DNA from: a virus
Direction: 5' to 3' (one strand)
Virus record (IMG/VR): IMGVR_UViG_3300035193_000067
Coordinates: 32,001 to 96,000 of that record
DNA: 64,000 nt
The notes beneath the pieces were generated by a model, which was not told where the DNA came from, searched no databases, and saw only the letters and a program-made list of their open reading frames with translations. Each line of letters starts with the position of its first letter. Position 1 is the first letter of the stretch. A program made the translations under genes and the position numbers. Shown piece by piece: positions 1,340-10,396 of this stretch.

Positions 1340-2674
1340 TTACCATTTTTCAGGCTGGTCGCCTGCTTCACCCCTGTCAGGAAGATCAAACACATCAGGC
1401 TCAGCGTCTGCAGACATTCCAGGAACACTGGGAACCATAGGAGGAGCTGTCTGAGCTACAGGAGGAGCTGTCTGAGCTACAGGAGGAGCTGTCTGAGCTA
1501 CAGGAGGAGCTGTTTGAGCTACAGGAGGAGCTGTCTGAGCTACAGGAGGAGCTGTTTGAGCTACAGGAGGTGCTGTCTGAGCTACAGGAGGTGCTGTCAT
1601 ACCTGGAACCATAGGAGGTGCTGCAGGAGCTGCCACAGCTGCCTGTTTAGGGATATACGCGTTCATACTCTGGGCAGGAACGTTGGCAGACGAAGAAGAC
1701 CCCCCAATGTACTGCTGCATTTCTTCAGCAGTGAGGATGCTAATAATCTCTGAAGGATCAGCCATGTTGGAAAGGCTTGTCATATAGGTCTTCCAAGCCT
1801 CTTCAGGTTGCACATAATCCCCGAGAGTTACTGTATAATCAGTATCTCTGAAATTATTATTGCTGCATTTGGTTGTATCCTTATCTACTTCAATCAAACG
1901 CAACCCTTCTGGATCATCAAAAACAAAAAACGGAAGATGGCCTTTATCAGCTGCTTTCTCATAAAACTTGTTAAGCATTTTAACAATGCTTGTAGGAGTA
2001 ATCCAGTACTGATAGCCTGCATCTTCCCCCTCAGGGATCTGAACAGTTCCTTTGATTCGTCCGTAGTCAACTACCTGAGTAATATACTTGTCAGATACTT
2101 CATACGTCCTGGTAGCAGCGATAAAAGTCTCACTGAGAATCGGATCAGAATCAACAATGGATTTGTAAGCCTTTCCTTTAGGCTTCTCTATCAGTCCACG
2201 ATCCTCCAGTACCTGTGTCCAGCGCTCATTGTGATCATCCCAGGCCTGTTTACGTGCTTTACAGAACGGGCAGGACCCGTCCTTGAACATCTTGGATTTT
2301 CCCCAGACCTGAGTAAGGTACTTGTTGAACTCATTGGGACAAATGAAAGTATGGAAACCTGTAGACCCGTCCTCACGCTCGTACTTGTCAATGGAGTGTA
2401 CAGGAATCTTGAAGTGATAGGTGTAGACAGGATCCTCTCCCTGACGAGGTGCCAGTGGGTTTCCTGCAACAAGGCCCAGTGCTTCCGCCTCTTCAGGTGT
2501 CTTGTTAAAGATCTTCCACATATCCGGTTGATACAGAGGAATATACAGTTCATTGGTGAATGATTTACCCGTCTGATGGGGCAGGGGTTTATACATTCTG
2601 GTCAGTTTTGTTGCGGAGGAAGTACCTTCAACTTCAGTACGTGCTGCCGCAGGTGCGTTGTAAGTTATTTTCAT
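1340..2674 (-). CDS. probable single-stranded DNA-binding protein (T4 gp32-like) with Pro/Ala-rich repeat linker
   Basis: Lies directly upstream of recA; H/C...CPFC putative Zn ligands; 'RDTDYTV' resembles gp32-family C-terminal strand; long low-complexity linker and acidic tail ending in an aromatic residue. Confidence 0.6.
   Translation of the reverse strand: MKITYNAPAAARTEVEGTSSATKLTRMYKPLPHQTGKSFTNELYIPLYQPDMWKIFNKTPEEAEALGLVAGNPLAPRQGEDPVYTYHFKIPVHSIDKYEREDGSTGFHTFICPNEFNKYLTQVWGKSKMFKDGSCPFCKARKQAWDDHNERWTQVLEDRGLIEKPKGKAYKSIVDSDPILSETFIAATRTYEVSDKYITQVVDYGRIKGTVQIPEGEDAGYQYWITPTSIVKMLNKFYEKAADKGHLPFFVFDDPEGLRLIEVDKDTTKCSNNNFRDTDYTVTLGDYVQPEEAWKTYMTSLSNMADPSEIISILTAEEMQQYIGGSSSSANVPAQSMNAYIPKQAAVAAPAAPPMVPGMTAPPVAQTAPPVAQTAPPVAQTAPPVAQTAPPVAQTAPPVAQTAPPVAQTAPPMVPSVPGMSADAEPDVFDLPDRGEAGDQPEKW
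1440..1598. repeat. 21-bp tandem repeat, 7 full copies plus a partial copy, encoding (TAPPVAQ)n
   Basis: GGAGGAGCTGT[C/T]TGAGCTACA units starting at 1440, 1461, 1482, 1503, 1524, 1545, 1566; in-frame within the SSB-like gene. Confidence 0.95.
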
Positions 2675-2686
2675 AAAATACTCCTT

Positions 2687-2962
2687 TTAGATAACCTTGT
2701 CATAGGTTTGTTCAAAAATGTCAGGCTTGCAGGGATAGAATTCACCCTGTACACCTTTAATTATATAATCACCAATAGATGCAACCATTACCCCTTCCAG
2801 AGTGGTAATCTTAAACTGACCATCCGCAGGATCAATTCCGTAACCACATTCATGAAAAGCTCCCAAGCCTTTCACTCCCATAAAATCAAGGACATCCTCA
2901 ACATTATGAGTGTTTAATTTTATTGCATCAACTTCTACAGGCTTCTTTCTGTACTTAGCCAT
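2687..2962 (-). CDS. conserved small phage protein
   Basis: KYRKKPVEVDA...TLEG...GDYIIKGVQGEFYPCKPDIFEQTY is a widespread phage protein pattern of unknown function. Confidence 0.8.
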   Translation of the reverse strand: MAKYRKKPVEVDAIKLNTHNVEDVLDFMGVKGLGAFHECGYGIDPADGQFKITTLEGVMVASIGDYIIKGVQGEFYPCKPDIFEQTYDKVI

Positions 2963-3599
2963 TGTTTACCTCATTTTCTACAGGAATGAAATCATTTTCT
3001 TCATTCAGTTTGTATAGTACATTAGGGAGAAGTCCGTTCTCTCCGATATACCCTGTCTTTAACCGGTAACGACCTTCCTCATAATCTGCATATACAATAG
3101 AAACCATCCCCCTCCACCCAGCAGAAACAGATCCACCTAACCCCGCTGTAGCAAACCCATAGAACCCCGCTTTAGCAACCCCTCCAAACCCAGCTGTTGC
3201 AAACCCCCCATAACCTACAACAGCTGTTTGGTTATCTGCAACAGCAATTATTGCACCTGCAACATTGGCAGGGTCAGCCCCTTTCTCGATAATAAAATCT
3301 GTGGCAGCTTTGCGGTCCCCGCAGAACTCTACATAACCTGATTTAAATTTTACCATACCATTCAGACCTACAACACCGCCATCCACACGAACAACCACCC
3401 ACTTAGCGTTAGGAGACCAGTCTAATGCTACACCTGCACCAGAGCCCCACAACAATCCGTGGAGACCTTTACCGAAGATGGGTTCAGGATCCCAGTCAGG
3501 AGCTTCCACGTAACCGTAGGAAGGCCATTGGAAACCGTTATAAGATGTCAAGTCCTCATTGCAGGTCCTTAAAACATACACTGGTTTGTTTTCTTTCAT
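2955..3599 (-). CDS. ice-nucleation-protein-like protein (INP N- and C-terminal domains with very short repeat core)
   Basis: VLRTC...GFQWP..G.VE...W...GLHGLLWG.G...AKWVV...GMVKF...GDR..A..FI....ADPA parallels InaZ/InaK N-domain; GRYR....IGENGL.....Y..NEEND parallels their C-domain; about five 8-aa Gly/Ala repeats between. Confidence 0.75.
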   Translation of the reverse strand: MKENKPVYVLRTCNEDLTSYNGFQWPSYGYVEAPDWDPEPIFGKGLHGLLWGSGAGVALDWSPNAKWVVVRVDGGVVGLNGMVKFKSGYVEFCGDRKAATDFIIEKGADPANVAGAIIAVADNQTAVVGYGGFATAGFGGVAKAGFYGFATAGLGGSVSAGWRGMVSIVYADYEEGRYRLKTGYIGENGLLPNVLYKLNEENDFIPVENEVNNG

Positions 3600-3603
3600 T
3601 ACA

Positions 3604-4269
3604 TTACCTCATCTTCGGTGCAAAAGACTGCATCGATTGTGCACGATCAACATCTGACATAGGTCCTACATTTCCGTGCTTTTCCATTACCAATTCTTTC
3701 AAATCCTTCATGTGGAAAGATCTGGCTTCCAGACGCTTTGCTATATTCTGAAGAGTTTCCACCTGCTTCTTCATCTCTGACAAGGATCTCACCAAAGCTT
3801 CATAATACCAGACAGAAGTACCGGACACATACTTATACATGTCTTCAGAGAAATCCTCAAAAGTATCATGATGCACTCCACCACGCTTGGAGTAAGCATC
3901 GTATGCAAGCATGGCATACTTCTGTCTCAAAGACTCTGCAGTATTCTCTGAATAAATCATGATTACGTTGTCTTTAATAGATTCCATCGTAGGAGTCTTC
4001 TCACCATACGCTAGAGACAGCAATTTAGCAAATTTCTTATTATGTGCCCACCAGCTCTTCTCAAATTCGTTTTTAAAAAGGTCATAGCGGTTGTTATAAT
4101 TGATTGCCAGTTGCTCCCAACGTGCCTGGACAGCTGCATGAGTCTTGTACAGAGACTCTATCTGAGTTTCATCAAACTCAAGCAGATCGATGATATCCGT
4201 CTCAGGGACTTCCTCTTCAGACACTAAAGAGAATATCCCATTAGTGATTGCTACACGGAAGTTGCTCAT
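3604..4269 (-). CDS. hypothetical helical protein, possibly UvsY-like recombination mediator
   Basis: Helical/coiled-coil composition, C-terminal 'LQNIAKRLEARSFHMKDL', near ssb and recA. Function is inference only. Confidence 0.4.
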   Translation of the reverse strand: MSNFRVAITNGIFSLVSEEEVPETDIIDLLEFDETQIESLYKTHAAVQARWEQLAINYNNRYDLFKNEFEKSWWAHNKKFAKLLSLAYGEKTPTMESIKDNVIMIYSENTAESLRQKYAMLAYDAYSKRGGVHHDTFEDFSEDMYKYVSGTSVWYYEALVRSLSEMKKQVETLQNIAKRLEARSFHMKDLKELVMEKHGNVGPMSDVDRAQSMQSFAPKMR

Positions 4270-5182: not shown

Positions 5183-6274
5183 CTAATTGTTACCAAATGC
5201 AGCAGCAAAAAACATGGTGAAAATACTTTTTGGGTAACCAGATTCTTCCATCATAGAAGAGAACTCCTTCCATACATTTGTTAAATACTTGATATGATCA
5301 GCGTTTAATTTCATCTTCTTCCTAAAAGATTCCACAGGAATTCCTGACAAAAAAGGAGGAGCCTTCCCATCAAAACCGTTCAAATAAAGCAACATGTCTC
5401 TCAGCAAGTTAGGAATTCCGTCAAGATACAACTTCTGCAGATCAACCCCATTTGAATACCAGTTCTCCAGAGTTTGCAATGCGTACTTAACGTTCCAAAA
5501 ATTAAGAACCCCTGCCAGATCCCTGTAAACACTTCCTGAGAGAATACCAAACATACTCTCCAACAAACCAGAATCCAAAGTATCCCCGTTCGATGCCAGA
5601 ATAACCTGATCAAGATATTGCTGGACGTCCCTTAAAGATCCGTCACTCAGTAAAGATATGTCAGAGATAAAAGAATCTGTAAAGGGGATATTTTCACTCT
5701 GAAGAATTCTTTTTACTGATTCTGCCACACCTTCCACCGTAAGAGGAGTTAAAGGCATGGACAGACACCTGGAACGCACTGTTCTGACAAGCTTTTCAGG
5801 ATCTGTGGTTACCAGAATGAAAGTAACACCCTGAGGCGGCTCTTCAAGCAGTTTCAGGAAAGCTGCCTGAGCCTGAGGAGTGAACATGTGCACTTCATCG
5901 AAAATAAACACTTTCCTGTTGTAGGTCTTGACACGTAACACGTAATCCTCGAAGGATCGGACAAAATCAACCCCGTTGTTTGAGGCTGCATCAAACTCAA
6001 AAATATCCGGATGAGTGTCGTTTTCAGCATCTATACAAGACGGGCAGGTTCTGCAAGGATCTTCCCCAGGAGGAGAACTCTGGCAGTTTAATGACTTTGC
6101 GTAAATTCTTGCCAGAGTCGTCTTACCTGTACCACGTACCCCTGAGATAAGCATACCTGAAGGAACTCTGCCCATTTTAATGGAGTTCTTCATAATGGTA
6201 ACTGAGACATCCTGCCCGATTACCTCTGAATATACCTGTGGCCTATACTTCCTGGCAAGAACCTGATAAGACAC
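5183..6274 (-). CDS. dnaX: DNA polymerase III gamma/tau-like clamp loader subunit
   Basis: YQVLARKYRP, GVRGTGKTT, Zn-site C...CRTCPSC, EFDAASN, IFDEVHM, AFLKLLEEPP, TVRSRC, GSLRD; 363 aa (gamma length, no tau C-terminal domains). Confidence 0.92.
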   Translation of the reverse strand: MSYQVLARKYRPQVYSEVIGQDVSVTIMKNSIKMGRVPSGMLISGVRGTGKTTLARIYAKSLNCQSSPPGEDPCRTCPSCIDAENDTHPDIFEFDAASNNGVDFVRSFEDYVLRVKTYNRKVFIFDEVHMFTPQAQAAFLKLLEEPPQGVTFILVTTDPEKLVRTVRSRCLSMPLTPLTVEGVAESVKRILQSENIPFTDSFISDISLLSDGSLRDVQQYLDQVILASNGDTLDSGLLESMFGILSGSVYRDLAGVLNFWNVKYALQTLENWYSNGVDLQKLYLDGIPNLLRDMLLYLNGFDGKAPPFLSGIPVESFRKKMKLNADHIKYLTNVWKEFSSMMEESGYPKSIFTMFFAAAFGNN

Positions 6275-6276
6275 TT

Positions 6277-6546
6277 CTAATACCTCACGTGCTCTCTATT
6301 GATTCTTGTTTGAGCCTCTGTCAGTTCCTTACAGCAACCTCCACAGGAGCACTCGTCAGACTCTTCTTCAAGGTCACAGAACTCAGTCAGCTCATAAATG
6401 CCCTGTTCCCCATCAAGATCAACAAGAACCTTCAGGTAAAAATTATTAGGTTGTGCACCCAGCTCCAGAACTTCATAAGAAGCTCCTGCAGCATCAAGAG
6501 CTGTATATAAGAGTCTCTGTAACTTATCAAACTGTTTTCCACTCAT
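6277..6546 (-). CDS. hypothetical protein (Cys-rich C-terminal part)
   Basis: 89-aa ORF, start overlaps upstream stop; CSCGGCC motif. Confidence 0.6.
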   Translation of the reverse strand: MSGKQFDKLQRLLYTALDAAGASYEVLELGAQPNNFYLKVLVDLDGEQGIYELTEFCDLEEESDECSCGGCCKELTEAQTRINREHVRY

Positions 6547-7409
6547 TAGAATTTCTCCACAAATTTGTAAAACTGATTAGCAACATCAGTTTGGAATTTT
6601 TCCAGATCCTGAATACCTGCAAGATCCCACTTTGATTTTTTGGAATTTGCATGAAGAAGCTGACCCTCATGATGCTTGTAGTCTGGTGAGAAGTCCTTCA
6701 AGACTGATCCATTTCCTGAAGGATTTCTCATGAAATACGGAGGTACCGGATCTTTGAAGTTCAGAATATCTTCATAAGCCAGAGCTGCCCAGATACCTGC
6801 TGTCAACTTAATCAGGCATTCAAGCTGCTTCTCAGTCAGTAGAAATACTTTATGAGTGCTTCCCTGAATATACACCTTACCAACTTCATGAGGATCCAAA
6901 CCAAGCCTTTTACAGCGCTCTTCCGAGTATGCTTCAGGTTTTGTAGCAGCACTTGGGTACAGAGCATTCTCAATTCCTATTGAAGTCCTGTTAAGATCTC
7001 CGGCATGCCAGGCACATTCTACTGCATCAAGAGGCTGATAAATAACCCCTTTATCATCTGTCAAAAACTGAACAGATAACTTTCTTTCGAAATGCAGTGT
7101 ATTAAAGGCCTGACGAGCAGTGAAGCCTCCAGTATGGTGCTGGACTATCTGTTTGATGGCTGCAAGACCACCTTTTCGCTTACTGTAGCGCTTTCCCTTA
7201 ATTGAATGCTTAATGCGTTTTCCTGTTTTTCGACAGTCTTCATACCAGACACGTTTAGACGTATCATAACTGTTCAAACCCATTGCATCATCCCATTTAA
7301 GAACTTTTGTACCAATGTCGTAATAAACGCCATTCACACAAATAGCATTGTCACGATTAAAAGGCTCTCCTGTAAAGGATACAAACTTCTCATTTAATTC
7401 TTTTTTCAT
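6546..7409 (-). CDS. N-acetylmuramoyl-L-alanine amidase (Amidase_2 type), probable endolysin
   Basis: IVQHHTGG, LSVQFLTDDKGVIYQ, AWHAG, NRTSIGIEN, and late H...K.D Zn-ligand region. Confidence 0.8.
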   Translation of the reverse strand: MKKELNEKFVSFTGEPFNRDNAICVNGVYYDIGTKVLKWDDAMGLNSYDTSKRVWYEDCRKTGKRIKHSIKGKRYSKRKGGLAAIKQIVQHHTGGFTARQAFNTLHFERKLSVQFLTDDKGVIYQPLDAVECAWHAGDLNRTSIGIENALYPSAATKPEAYSEERCKRLGLDPHEVGKVYIQGSTHKVFLLTEKQLECLIKLTAGIWAALAYEDILNFKDPVPPYFMRNPSGNGSVLKDFSPDYKHHEGQLLHANSKKSKWDLAGIQDLEKFQTDVANQFYKFVEKF

Positions 7410-7430: not shown

Positions 7431-8207
7431 TTAAAATATTTCATTAGACCACAACCACCACACATACCACTGACTCAACATTTGTGGATACAGATGAGGT
7501 TTAGAAAAACCATAAAGACCACAGGAGTAAAAATTATGAACTTCTATAACATACAGATTCCCATTGTAAACTCCTATATCTAAAGTGTACGCAGAAGGAT
7601 ATTCTGTAGGCTTTACCTTCTCGTATTCACGATCACATTCACGTGCAAAAGCCTGAATATCACAAGCCTGTTTAAACAGTTCTCCTTCATACTGCTTTAT
7701 GTCCAAAAGTAAACCGTTAAAAATAAAACATCGATACTCTGCATCAAAACCTGAAGGCAAGTATTCTGTTACCTGCCATCTTCCTGCAGGAATGTCAACA
7801 GACACTCCATTTAAAGGATGTTTTATCTTCTCCATAGACTTAATAAACACAGGAGCACTATATCCACATAGAGGCACATCCTGCTGGTTAAACACAGAGA
7901 TATCTTTCACAGCAATATAAGGATTCAAACCATAAAGATAAAGAGCTTTAGGAACATTTACAGGAGAAGGTACAGGTATATCGTTTAACTCAAAAAACCT
8001 GTGAACAAATTCAACAGATCCTACAGGCACACTACTGCAGACATCTTCCACTTTTTCAGGAGCTATACACAACTCCCACACCTTCTCCTTGTAAGAAGTA
8101 AGCGCACCATCATATACTCTATTCTGATACTTAATAGAATTAATAAGCTCCACCTGCCAATCAAACATAGGTAATCCATCAGTATCGCATTGAATTAAAA
8201 ACCTCAT
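7431..8207 (-). CDS. ATP-grasp domain protein (R2K clade / DUF4343-like)
   Basis: PVGSVEFV, FIKS, EYRCFIFNG, YTLDIGV, VIEVHNFYSCGLYG motif series. Confidence 0.75.
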   Translation of the reverse strand: MRFLIQCDTDGLPMFDWQVELINSIKYQNRVYDGALTSYKEKVWELCIAPEKVEDVCSSVPVGSVEFVHRFFELNDIPVPSPVNVPKALYLYGLNPYIAVKDISVFNQQDVPLCGYSAPVFIKSMEKIKHPLNGVSVDIPAGRWQVTEYLPSGFDAEYRCFIFNGLLLDIKQYEGELFKQACDIQAFARECDREYEKVKPTEYPSAYTLDIGVYNGNLYVIEVHNFYSCGLYGFSKPHLYPQMLSQWYVWWLWSNEIF

Positions 8208-10396
8208 TTATCACCCCAGCATTTGTGAACTTCCAGATCTGCAATAAGAGGAACTGAAAACCCTGTAAAATCTCTGAGCCAGTCTGTCATGTAGTACTGC
8301 ATTATCTGACCAACCCTCTCAACCTCATCCTTATGAGTAATGCAGCAAATTTCGTCATGCACAATATTACCTACCGCAGATCTCAGCTTCTCTTTCCTAA
8401 TCTGTTCATCAATTTTAATCAAAGATAATGCCGCCATGTCTGAAGCAGATCCCTGTACAATTGTATTAACTGACTGTCTGAGTGCATGCTTCTTCGTTTG
8501 GTCAATGTAACGAGTCTCCGAGTTTGGAAAACAACTTCCCAGGTACTGACAGTCTGCACACTTAAAGTAGTGAGGCTTCCCGGAAGATTTAATCATTCTT
8601 TTCAAACTGTCAAGATCAACTTCGTACGCATCGTTCTGGCTCAACCCGATATCCATAGGTTTGATGCAGAATTTGTAGCACTCAGGGCGATCATTGTACT
8701 TTGGCATACTCCTGTAATGAGGTACCTGTAGCTGTGCTGTGGGCAGGTGTCTACGTCTGCCGAACATATTGACTACATATCCGTTTTCCTGAACGAAAGA
8801 ATGAATGTAATCAATCCATTCTTTCAGCACAGGCGCGTTTCCAAAATAGTCCACATTTACAAGCTTTTCAGCTTCCTCTATCTCCATATCAAGAGACTTT
8901 GACAAAGACCATACGCTCTCTCCGTAAATAATACCAAAGTTAATAGTTTTTGCACGGCTTCTCAAGTGACTGGGGACCTCTGCAACATCACAATCAAGCT
9001 TGAATACAGATTTTGCTGTAGCTGAGTGCATATCTTCACCACGATTAAATGAATCAATCCACACAGGCTCCTGAGATACATGAGCAGCTACCCGCAACTC
9101 CATCTGCGAAAAGTCACTGAAAATAAAAACATAGTCATCCGGACACTCCCACATACCTTTAACGATCTTTCCTCCGTTCTCTTTCCGGGGAAGATTCATC
9201 AGGTTTGGATCACTACCTTTCAACCGGCCTGTCAGAGAATCCATAAACACAGAAGGATGCACCCATCCAACCTTTCCACCATCTGAGACTTCATCAACCT
9301 TTACAATAGCAGGTGAAGCGTATGTAGACTGAATCTGTTGAGCTCTTCTGTATTTGGACAGAGGCTCTTTGACAGGATGTTCCAGCTCCTTCAGAACGGA
9401 ATCATCCACAACCCAACCATGTTTATTACGCCGTCCACCAGGAAGCTGCAAGTCCTCAAACAGAACCTTACCGAGCTGAGGATTGGAAGAAACCTTGAAC
9501 TCCTGTCCTGTCAGCTCCCAGATTTCTGCCTCAAGACTCTTCATATCTCGAAGCATGTTTGATTCCACTTCCCTGGCCTTTTGAATATTTAGAGGCATTC
9601 CTTTGGACTCCATACGCACCAAAGCGTCAGACAAAGGAAGAGAAATGTTATTAAACACCCAGTAAGTCTTCTCCTCAATAAGACGAGGACGCATAATGAA
9701 CATCAGAGACAATGTCAAATCAGCATCTGCGCAAGCATATGGATACAAAACCTCCAAAGGAACTTTGTGATACCTCTTCAGATCAGGATCAAAATGAACC
9801 AAAGCATCCTGAAGATCTTCTTTAAACGCTGAAGCGCCTAAATCCAGGTACTTATCCGCCATTCCCAATTTGGTTACTTTTCCATCAGGGGCAAAATCTG
9901 ATTTCAAAGCATGTGAGCACTCTCTGCGCTCTTCGTCCAGGAGAGCATGTGCAAGCATTGTGTCAAACTTAAAATTCTGAACCTCAATGCCTTTTTTTCT
10001 GAGCAGTTCCCTAGAGTCGAATTTCCCATTATGAGCCACCTTTGCAACAGGACTCTCCAAAATACCTTTTAAGGCCTTATCAACGTTCTTTTGATTAGAA
10101 CGCCAGAAAGGAGATTCATCCATACGTATTAAAGGTAAATAAGCCCCTGTACCAGGCTCCCAGGGAGTACTTACAGAGGTTCTTCCCCATGAAAACGCCA
10201 CACCAGCAACTCTAACAGGAGTTCCCGAAACATAATCCTGTTTTTTATCCTTACTCTTAACTGTTGGATGTGTTGTTTCAATATCATACGCCATGTAAGG
10301 AGTCTTCAATAGAGTATTGTACATCCATGACAGCTTCTTTGGCGTGTCGACAAGATGGTAACTCTTAGGGATCTTTAGTTTGTTAAAAAAATTCAT
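8204..10396 (-). CDS. polA: family A DNA polymerase (3'-5' exonuclease + polymerase; no 5'-3' exo domain)
   Basis: Exo I DIET, Exo II HNGKFD, DTMLA, Exo III YACADAD; TGRL...PNLMNLP; motif A DFSQMELR; motif B RSRAKTINFGIIYG; motif C VHDE. Confidence 0.95.
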   Translation of the reverse strand: MNFFNKLKIPKSYHLVDTPKKLSWMYNTLLKTPYMAYDIETTHPTVKSKDKKQDYVSGTPVRVAGVAFSWGRTSVSTPWEPGTGAYLPLIRMDESPFWRSNQKNVDKALKGILESPVAKVAHNGKFDSRELLRKKGIEVQNFKFDTMLAHALLDEERRECSHALKSDFAPDGKVTKLGMADKYLDLGASAFKEDLQDALVHFDPDLKRYHKVPLEVLYPYACADADLTLSLMFIMRPRLIEEKTYWVFNNISLPLSDALVRMESKGMPLNIQKAREVESNMLRDMKSLEAEIWELTGQEFKVSSNPQLGKVLFEDLQLPGGRRNKHGWVVDDSVLKELEHPVKEPLSKYRRAQQIQSTYASPAIVKVDEVSDGGKVGWVHPSVFMDSLTGRLKGSDPNLMNLPRKENGGKIVKGMWECPDDYVFIFSDFSQMELRVAAHVSQEPVWIDSFNRGEDMHSATAKSVFKLDCDVAEVPSHLRSRAKTINFGIIYGESVWSLSKSLDMEIEEAEKLVNVDYFGNAPVLKEWIDYIHSFVQENGYVVNMFGRRRHLPTAQLQVPHYRSMPKYNDRPECYKFCIKPMDIGLSQNDAYEVDLDSLKRMIKSSGKPHYFKCADCQYLGSCFPNSETRYIDQTKKHALRQSVNTIVQGSASDMAALSLIKIDEQIRKEKLRSAVGNIVHDEICCITHKDEVERVGQIMQYYMTDWLRDFTGFSVPLIADLEVHKCWGDK

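Follow-up and report, generated by a model that had tools for sequence, protein, structure and literature searches.

A short phage-encoded homolog of the terminal domains of bacterial ice-nucleation proteins

A gene in a phage replication block encodes a protein of 214 residues whose two ends resemble those of the bacterial ice-nucleation proteins (INPs). This raises the questions of whether the resemblance reflects homology, whether so short a form would nucleate ice, what else it may do in the infected cell, and how it stands in relation to the origin of the INPs.

The locus and the predicted protein

The window analyzed is a 64,000-nt stretch of DNA comprising bases 32001-96000 of a 163,407-bp viral record, which is ~93% complete and has a G+C content of 41.6%. 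The DNA polymerase of the phage shares less than 32% identity with the polymerase of any cultured phage. The features of the locus, in window coordinates, are:

2955..3599, minus strand: complete coding sequence of the mini-INP P0001, 214 aa plus stop codon (ATG-to-TAA open reading frame with homologs found)
3276..3599, minus strand: head domain, residues 1-108, DUF7666-like and homologous to the INP N-terminal globular domain (Pfam, profile, BLASTP, AlphaFold2, and ESM Atlas)
3108..3275, minus strand: linker and octapeptide β-solenoid rod, residues 109-164 (AlphaFold2 strands and octad statistics)
2982..3107, minus strand: C-terminal cap, residues 165-206, homologous to the ~41-aa INP cap (profile and BLASTP)
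2955..2981, minus strand: tail, residues 207-214, and stop codon (AlphaFold2), overlapping the downstream reading frame 2687-2962
3604-3606, minus strand: stop codon of the preceding reading frame
3607..3610, minus strand: GAGG ribosome-binding site, 7 nt upstream of the ATG (read from the sequence)
249-1256: UvsX-like recombinase, a neighbor in the same gene block
5183-6274: clamp loader, a neighbor in the same gene block
8204-10396: family-A DNA polymerase, a neighbor in the same gene block

An earlier note on this DNA had placed a miniature INP homolog at 2955-3599, and a minus-strand reading frame of 214 codons is found exactly there. It is a real gene; a word search retrieved 109 homologs of P0001, and PHROG 18079 matches it with an E value of 2.8e-41. 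The GAGG site lies just upstream of the stop codon of the preceding reading frame, inside the last codons of that frame, which implies translational coupling of the mini-INP gene. The start codon follows the preceding stop by 4 nt and the downstream reading frame overlaps the end of the gene by 8 nt, and the gene is therefore part of a tightly coupled, co-directional block. The block also encodes an amidase-like protein, and the early/replication operon proposed as the setting is borne out by the neighboring UvsX-like recombinase, clamp loader, and DNA polymerase genes. The N-terminal motifs quoted in the earlier note (VLRTC, GFQWP, GLHGLLWG, AKWVV, GMVKF, GDR, and ADPA) are all found in P0001, as is the C-terminal motif GRYRLKTGYIGENGLLPNVLYKLNEEND.

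The AlphaFold2 model of P0001, computed with a 22-sequence family alignment as input, has a mean pLDDT of 94.7 and a pTM of 0.84, and agrees with the solenoid proposed from the repeats in placing a β-strand every 8 residues. The head is predicted to consist of six strands and one helix and is joined to the rod by a linker of ~8 aa. The rod strands (117-120, 125-128, 133-136, 141-144, 149-152, and 157-160; pLDDT 96-98) are each four residues long with 8-residue spacing from residue 117 to 160. The five octapeptides noted earlier are present and are preceded by one further degenerate octad, so the modeled rod comprises about six octads, or about three 16-residue coils. The cap region (165-206) is modeled as two longer strands with a small cap, and the tail is predicted to be disordered from about residue 210 (pLDDT <50). 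Position 7 of the octads, which is the position of the INP tyrosine ladder, is occupied by Y, F, F, L, and W. Neither a signal peptide nor a transmembrane segment is present in the P0001 sequence. At the DNA level, the octads are underlain by a 24-bp tandem repeat (3139..3206) with 2.8 copies and a 77% match. A fresh slippage array was rejected on these values, and the DNA array is old and diverged.

Homology to ice-nucleation proteins and membership of a phage family

Comparison with genuine INPs was performed on sequences fetched by a degenerate DNA pattern for AGYGSTQTA, which gave 74 loci (Pseudomonas, Pantoea, Xanthomonas, and others). Eight full-length INP reading frames of 873-1,615 aa were taken from the Pseudomonas and Xanthomonas loci, and the INP terminal motifs given in the earlier note hold against the fetched genes. 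A head profile (104 positions) and a cap profile (42 positions) were built from phage-type mini-proteins only, with the repeats cut out. All eight full-length INPs are matched by both: the head profile scores 88-101 bits over residues ~6-108 and the cap profile 27-38 bits at the extreme C terminus, so the claim that P0001 has the same terminal domains as the INPs is upheld with the repeats unused. As a specificity control, 6,608 stop-to-stop six-frame translations from 521 kb of bacterial loci were searched. All 36 frames matched by the head profile run on into INP repeats, and all 35 cap matches lie in INP frames, none more than 45 aa away from the frame end; the next-best scores of 16 bits fall on truncated INP fragments, and no off-target head or cap match was found among the 6,608 frames. 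In BLASTP, the head of P0001 shares 41% identity over 98 aa with a P. syringae INP (E 4e-16) and the cap aligns with an E value of 2e-4. The P. syringae, Pantoea ananatis, and X. nasturtii genomes, each searched in full, gave exactly one match apiece (E ~1e-27), which begins a long INP frame of 1,266 aa in P. syringae and 1,483 aa in X. nasturtii; the open frame in Pantoea ananatis is only 356 aa. Bacterial INP clusters are also structural neighbors of the P0001 head in the ESM Atlas, with TM values of 0.90-0.91. The true INPs were not retrieved when longer proteins were searched by words with the P0001 head and its relative P0098 as queries.

The agreement of the repeat-free profiles, BLASTP, the genome searches, and the Atlas establishes that P0001 is homologous to both INP terminal domains. 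The resemblance might instead have been convergence or a low-complexity artifact of Gly/Ala/Thr-rich repeats, and the BLASTP alignments between P0001 and INP repeats are indeed weak and numerous. However, head and cap alone give the scores cited above with perfect positional specificity, and each INP-bearing genome yields exactly one match; this explanation is excluded.

P0001 and the INPs have in common a ~100-aa N-terminal globular domain with the LRTC, WP, GLxGLLWGxG, AxWxV, and KF motifs, an 8-residue repeat register forming 16-residue β-solenoid coils, and a ~41-aa C-terminal cap with the pattern WD...R.R...GE.G...Y, and both are without a signal peptide. They differ in coil number, which is ~3 in P0001 and more than 40 in INPs, and in the spacer between head and rod, which is ~8-10 aa in P0001 and a flexible linker of ~50 aa in INPs. 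The segment between the termini is 55 aa in P0001 compared with 719-1,433 aa in genuine INPs. The head of P0001 keeps Asp-35 and His-47, both of which are replaced in INPs, and P0001 has neither the TxT/SxLT water-organizing motifs of INPs nor a match to PF00818. Furthermore, the P0001 gene belongs to the replication block of a phage, and the INP genes are located on the chromosomes of Pseudomonas, Pantoea, and Xanthomonas.

P0001 belongs to a very large phage/prophage family, within which it is short and divergent. It scores 26.5 bits against Pfam DUF7666 (PF24703), for which the cutoff is 27, and the precomputed Pfam list of the protein collection assigns PF24703 to it; its relatives carry DUF7666 with or without DUF4774 (PF15999). 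DUF7666, DUF4774, and PHROG 18079 are unannotated families to which P0001 belongs by sequence. NCBIfam holds no match for P0001, a feature search of the Atlas yielded nothing of use, PDB sequence searches with P0001 and P0098 as queries returned nothing meaningful, and P0001 alone as a query has no close relative in IMG/VR. With an alignment as query, 79 family loci were found in IMG/VR. A search of 1.84 billion proteins with the head profile yielded 1,984 representatives (50% identity clusters), of which 1,403 have E ≤ 1e-10; the best 150 of the 1,984 matches are without exception short, at 105-531 aa. The heads of genuine INPs escape the Pfam DUF7666 model at E ≤ 0.01, and the link between the family and the INPs is thus absent from the database. 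The literature searched nowhere describes the family as a relative of INPs and makes no mention of DUF7666; prior knowledge of the family consists of the three database entries, the uncharacterized Bbp36/VR2, and a BLAST-based annotation of Mica gp48.

The survey of repeat number called for by the earlier note covered 198 sampled relatives with both termini, in which 15-209 aa (median 80 aa, or ~10 octads) separate the two, and the rods of the family span ~2 to 26 octads. Octads of the family follow the logo G-T-A-T-A-G-[D/Y]-x, and at least three TxT octads are present in 105 of the 198 relatives. The P0001 rod has no T.T.G octad and lies at the 13th percentile of the family for Thr and the 98th for aromatics, and P0001 is thus atypical within its family in having a TxT-free, Thr-poor, and aromatic-rich rod. 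The description of a minimal solenoid lacking a TxT face therefore fits P0001 but does not extend to the family as a whole. PF00818 is matched by the relatives P0098, P0101, and P0252. The ESM Atlas shows this head joined in other phages to pentapeptide, YdcK/hexapeptide, or LRR arrays, and in one lineage a PRPP-synthetase-like enzyme is fused to the mini-INP, with the same reading frame found on two contigs. A role for the rods as DNA mimics was rejected, as they carry almost no net charge, the median being -0.12 per octad (the P0001 rod as a whole has -1). The head is rare in cellular genomes: in an even sample of 300 genomes from the class of P. syringae it was found only in the center genome itself, and two members on long bacterial contigs lie inside prophages. 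In IMG/VR, 26 of 82 family reading frames reach the end of their contig, and because arrays break short-read assemblies, longer phage arrays are probably under-sampled.

Among the named relatives, Bbp36 of the Bordetella phages BPP-1/BMP-1/BIP-1 shares 41% identity over 80% of P0001 (tblastn, E 1e-12). Both have a head and a 24-bp/8-aa tandem array, and the "variable region 2" (VR2) is this array. Bbp36 is longer (309 aa) with a near-perfect DNA repeat, in contrast to the short, diverged repeat of P0001, and in BPP-1 its gene is flanked by the repressor on one side and the exonuclease/SSB/polymerase genes on the other. PMC2884959, with reference to Liu et al. 2004, gives 9 to 20 copies of the 24-bp unit across isolates and describes bbp36 as non-essential and without effect on tropism. 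Burkholderia phage Mica gp48 shares 43% identity over 93% of P0001 (tblastn, E 3e-27) and its gene is surrounded in the early region by those for nucleases, HTH regulators, and a helicase. A protein of Pseudomonas phage D14O is a further relative, and proteins of EL-like jumbo phages match the rod/cap region of P0001 only.

Ice nucleation, the head domain, and function

Any ice activity is reported to need at least 13-15 sixteen-residue repeats (Forbes et al., PMC9418140), and natural INPs have ~30 to more than 70 water-organizing coils in addition to R-coils (PMC10727499). P0001 has no match to PF00818 at E ≤ 10, and the model was not found in the whole phage or in 14 control genomes. The array does not conform to the INP repeat model AGYGSTxTAxxxSxLx (PF00818), although the 8-residue period and the strand register are common to both, and the TxT and SxL[T/I] water-organizing faces are absent. 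With ~3 coils compared with the published minimum, no TxT or SxLT motif, and no PF00818 match, P0001 is very unlikely to nucleate ice, and the expectation in the earlier note that it probably does not accords with that minimum. The Mica genome paper, in one sentence, took gp48 for an INP and a possible "accessory phytopathogen virulence factor" (PMC7883832); the name came from a BLASTP match to the Pantoea INP Q47879 (E 4e-10). That P0001 is, as this implies, a functional ice-nucleating or ice-binding protein is highly improbable, given its coil number, its aromatic-rich rod free of water-organizing motifs, the missing PF00818 match, and the occurrence of relatives in phages of Bordetella, Burkholderia cenocepacia, and P. 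aeruginosa. Where the Mica paper reads gp48 as a true INP, the present evidence speaks against ice activity of such short forms, and these points make the ice-nucleation virulence role suggested for gp48 unlikely for them.

The copies and surroundings of the gene bear on what it does instead. This phage carries at least ten family copies, including six full-length genes, three head-less rod and cap reading frames, and one head/rod pair divided over two reading frames with a 4-nt overlap; one copy wraps the ends of the record, and the paralog P0003 has a hydrophobic N-terminal extension ahead of the head. The early module houses the family genes in BPP-1, Mica, two prophages, and the 79 IMG/VR loci, where their neighbors are cI-type repressors, integrase, PD-(D/E)XK nucleases, helicases, AAA_24 ATPases, clamps, and polymerases. 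They are stand-alone genes of an early replication/recombination or lysogeny-switch module. No conserved partner gene was found, as the commonest neighbor cluster occurs in only 7 of the 79 loci; a fixed partner or two-gene system was rejected on this count, and the lack of a conserved neighbor indicates that the family gene acts alone, outside any fixed pair. Some of the top neighbor clusters overlap the family gene (negative median distance) and may be overlapping-frame artifacts.

The head domain was compared with known folds using two independent models (pLDDT 94.7 and 92.3). ADP-ribosyltransferase (ART)-fold proteins make up ~28 of 36 and ~40 of 50 head-domain rows in the VIA lists, with significance below the noise guide of the tool, and Foldseek searches of the PDB were not significant for either model. 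The weak but consistent ART-like fold is a lead, not a finding. The ART-fold proteins compared are BC2332 (2aua), Arr, TreTu/TreX, PARP catalytic domains, Tpt1, and diphtheria/pertussis-type toxins; unlike these, the P0001 head is much smaller, and it has no sequence similarity to them. No triad of canonical ART catalytic residues (H-Y-E or R-S-E) was identified in the P0001 head. Arg-11 on strand 1 is conserved in 94% of the mini-proteins and in all eight INPs. Structural homologs of the INP terminal domains were not found by Forbes et al. (PMC9418140), and the literature searched holds no link between INPs and ADP-ribosyltransferases.

P0001 is likely a non-ice protein expressed within the infected cell alongside the replication genes, where it would act as a dispensable accessory factor. 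That it is made there is indicated by the lack of a signal peptide and by the translational coupling within the recombinase/clamp-loader/polymerase block. The conserved head, with its putative ART-like fold and a polar cluster conserved across the family (Arg-11, Ser-19, Asp-35, Cys-42, His-47, Lys-82, and Lys-84), would be the working module and bind a ligand or protein, and the capped rod may serve as a rigid element whose length is easily changed. The tyrosine ladder of INPs has a proposed role in self-association or partner binding, and by analogy the position-7 aromatics of the P0001 rod may drive either of these. The specific proposal that P0001 engages a host or phage component through its head, and that the capped rod with its aromatic edges serves for self-association or binding, is tentative and somewhat doubtful. 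Taken as a whole, a three-part INP homolog acting as a non-ice, head-driven early accessory factor, from whose family the INPs would be derived, is the explanation we regard as fairly probable.

Several other functions were weighed against this explanation. The head might be an active NAD+-using enzyme (an ADP-ribosyltransferase or a relative) that modifies a host protein early in infection, with the rod as a targeting or oligomerization module. The dominance of ART-fold proteins in the lists for both head models, the early position of the family genes, and the conservation of the seven polar residues are consistent with such an enzyme, and T4 Alt/ModA/ModB would offer a precedent for early host-protein modification. 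The PRPP-synthetase-like/mini-INP fusion points the same way, in that the ART-fold match ParT is listed as a Prs-ADP-ribosylating toxin. We nevertheless judge this enzyme unlikely. About equally improbable is an action at the envelope, in which the head targets the membrane or outer membrane and alters the cell surface, for example in superinfection exclusion or receptor masking. In INPs, the homologous N-domain is reported to serve as an outer-membrane anchor and not to be required for ice nucleation (PMC10727499), from which a similar placement might be argued; P0003 has its hydrophobic extension, copy number and repeats vary rapidly in the family, and prophage copies adjoin repressor and integrase genes. 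However, P0001 lacks both a signal peptide and a transmembrane segment, its gene is part of a lytic replication block rather than a lysogeny module, and six near-invariant head residues are replaced in INPs, which suggests that anchoring may be new to the INPs. Mimicry of the MinC C-terminal β-helix by the rod and cap, interfering with host division (MinD/FtsZ) as some early phage proteins do, is very improbable.

Relation to the origin of the INPs

The head-domain tree contains 259 sequences, including the eight INPs, and was rooted at the midpoint with no outgroup. In this tree, of the kind called for by the earlier note, the INPs form one clade inside the family, with a support of 1.0, placed 16 nodes deep within the mini-protein radiation under this rooting; the backbone supports are just 0.17-0.86. 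Six residues (Phe-23, Asp-35, Cys-42, Gly-43, His-47, and Lys-82) are at least 93% conserved in the 251 mini-proteins and replaced in all eight INPs, and Arg-11, Thr-12, Cys-13, and Lys-84 are retained in the INP heads. The replacement of the six residues is independent of the rooting of the tree. A simple series from TATAG-type through STLT-type repeats to INPs is not supported, as the STLT mini-proteins P0098 and P0101 are not among the closest listed sister groups of the INPs.

The nested clade, the replaced residues, the narrow taxonomic range of the INPs, and the breadth of the family favor the INPs being a derived offshoot of the phage mini-protein family, and on these sequence comparisons we consider this polarity the probable one. 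The suggestion that P0001 reflects the ancestral scaffold from which INPs expanded is thus favored yet unproven, because the tree has no outgroup. The INPs would have arisen through massive expansion of the array, insertion of the ~50-aa linker, and loss of the polar cluster of the head. A more far-reaching joint proposal would have the INPs come from the phage early family via gammaproteobacterial capture, with more than 10-fold array expansion, loss of Asp-35/Cys-42/His-47/Lys-82, and re-use of the head as an envelope anchor. The phage head would then be an atypical module of the ADP-ribosyltransferase superfamily that binds or uses NAD+, ADP-ribose, or a nucleotide and thereby acts on the host early in infection, and the interchangeable octapeptide, pentapeptide, and YdcK-hexapeptide rods would be scaffolds or target binders. 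In this combined form the proposal is speculative and rather unlikely.

The family provides many natural homologs of the INP head and cap joined by ~2 to 26 octads, and thereby a natural series for the roles of head and cap, the shortest capped INP-type solenoid, and the origin of the giant INP arrays. It also corrects a spreading annotation in which short phage proteins are labeled "ice nucleation protein" or "virulence factor". What phage biology gains is a very abundant, multi-copy, and fast-varying early family with a possibly ART-like head joined to solenoids of several kinds, a profile that fits host-takeover or defence/counter-defence factors.

Copies of the family across the phage record

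The phage that encodes the mini-INP P0001 carries at least ten copies of the family of phage and prophage homologues of ice-nucleation proteins. Those lying outside the window are listed below.

Further family copies (coordinates of the whole record)
108391-109158, -, family copy
120045-120905, +, family copy
132554-133231, +, family copy
147147-147944, -, family copy
153044-153751, -, family copy
148522-148848 and 147941-148525, both -, split pair of a head gene and a rod-plus-cap gene
126184-126594, +, head-less ORF with rod and cap only
134622-135293, +, head-less ORF with rod and cap only
137203-137679, -, head-less ORF with rod and cap only
9-365 with 163192-163365, -, copy spanning the record ends

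The two genes of the split pair overlap by 4 nt, and one of the three head-less ORFs contains two rod-plus-cap units. Because one copy crosses the ends of the record, the record is suggested to be circular or circularly permuted.

Octapeptide arrays in metagenome assemblies

At the 79 IMG/VR loci, 26 of the 82 family ORFs are cut off where their contig ends, a much larger share than a gene of ~700 bp on contigs of ~40 kb should show. The octapeptide arrays of the family evidently break short-read assemblies, and array lengths taken from metagenomes are therefore biased low.

Neighboring ORFs in the replication block

The mini-INP block and the gene for the UvsX-like recombinase flank a 444-aa ORF (window 1340-2674, -) whose product has eight tandem PPVAQTA heptapeptides close to its C terminus and whose sole match is PHROG 25538, of unknown function. 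An amidase/endolysin-like ORF (6546-7409, -), matching PHROG lysis families with E values of 1e-9 to 1e-6, is positioned within the replication block with the clamp loader and DNA polymerase on either side, an unusual site for a lysis-type enzyme.

Structural matches of P0001 and fusions within the family

Two kinds of BFVD protein recurred as weak matches to the AF2 model of whole P0001: RIIB from T4-like phages and giant-virus "ankyrin repeat" proteins (in both cases ~110 columns, rmsd 3–4 Å, E 0.008–0.06, the half of the model matched not being reported). In the 531-aa metagenomic protein P0110, a natural fusion, a PRPP-synthetase-like half (PF13793 and PF00156) is joined to a complete mini-INP; its ORF is present in two samples, on contigs of 5,001 and 2,647 bp, and two mini-INP genes lie in tandem upstream of it. 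In phages, the family head is also joined to pentapeptide repeats, YdcK/hexapeptide β-solenoids, and LRRs (ESM Atlas clusters, TM 0.67–0.75). The pattern in these clusters is one of a conserved head with swappable repeat rods.
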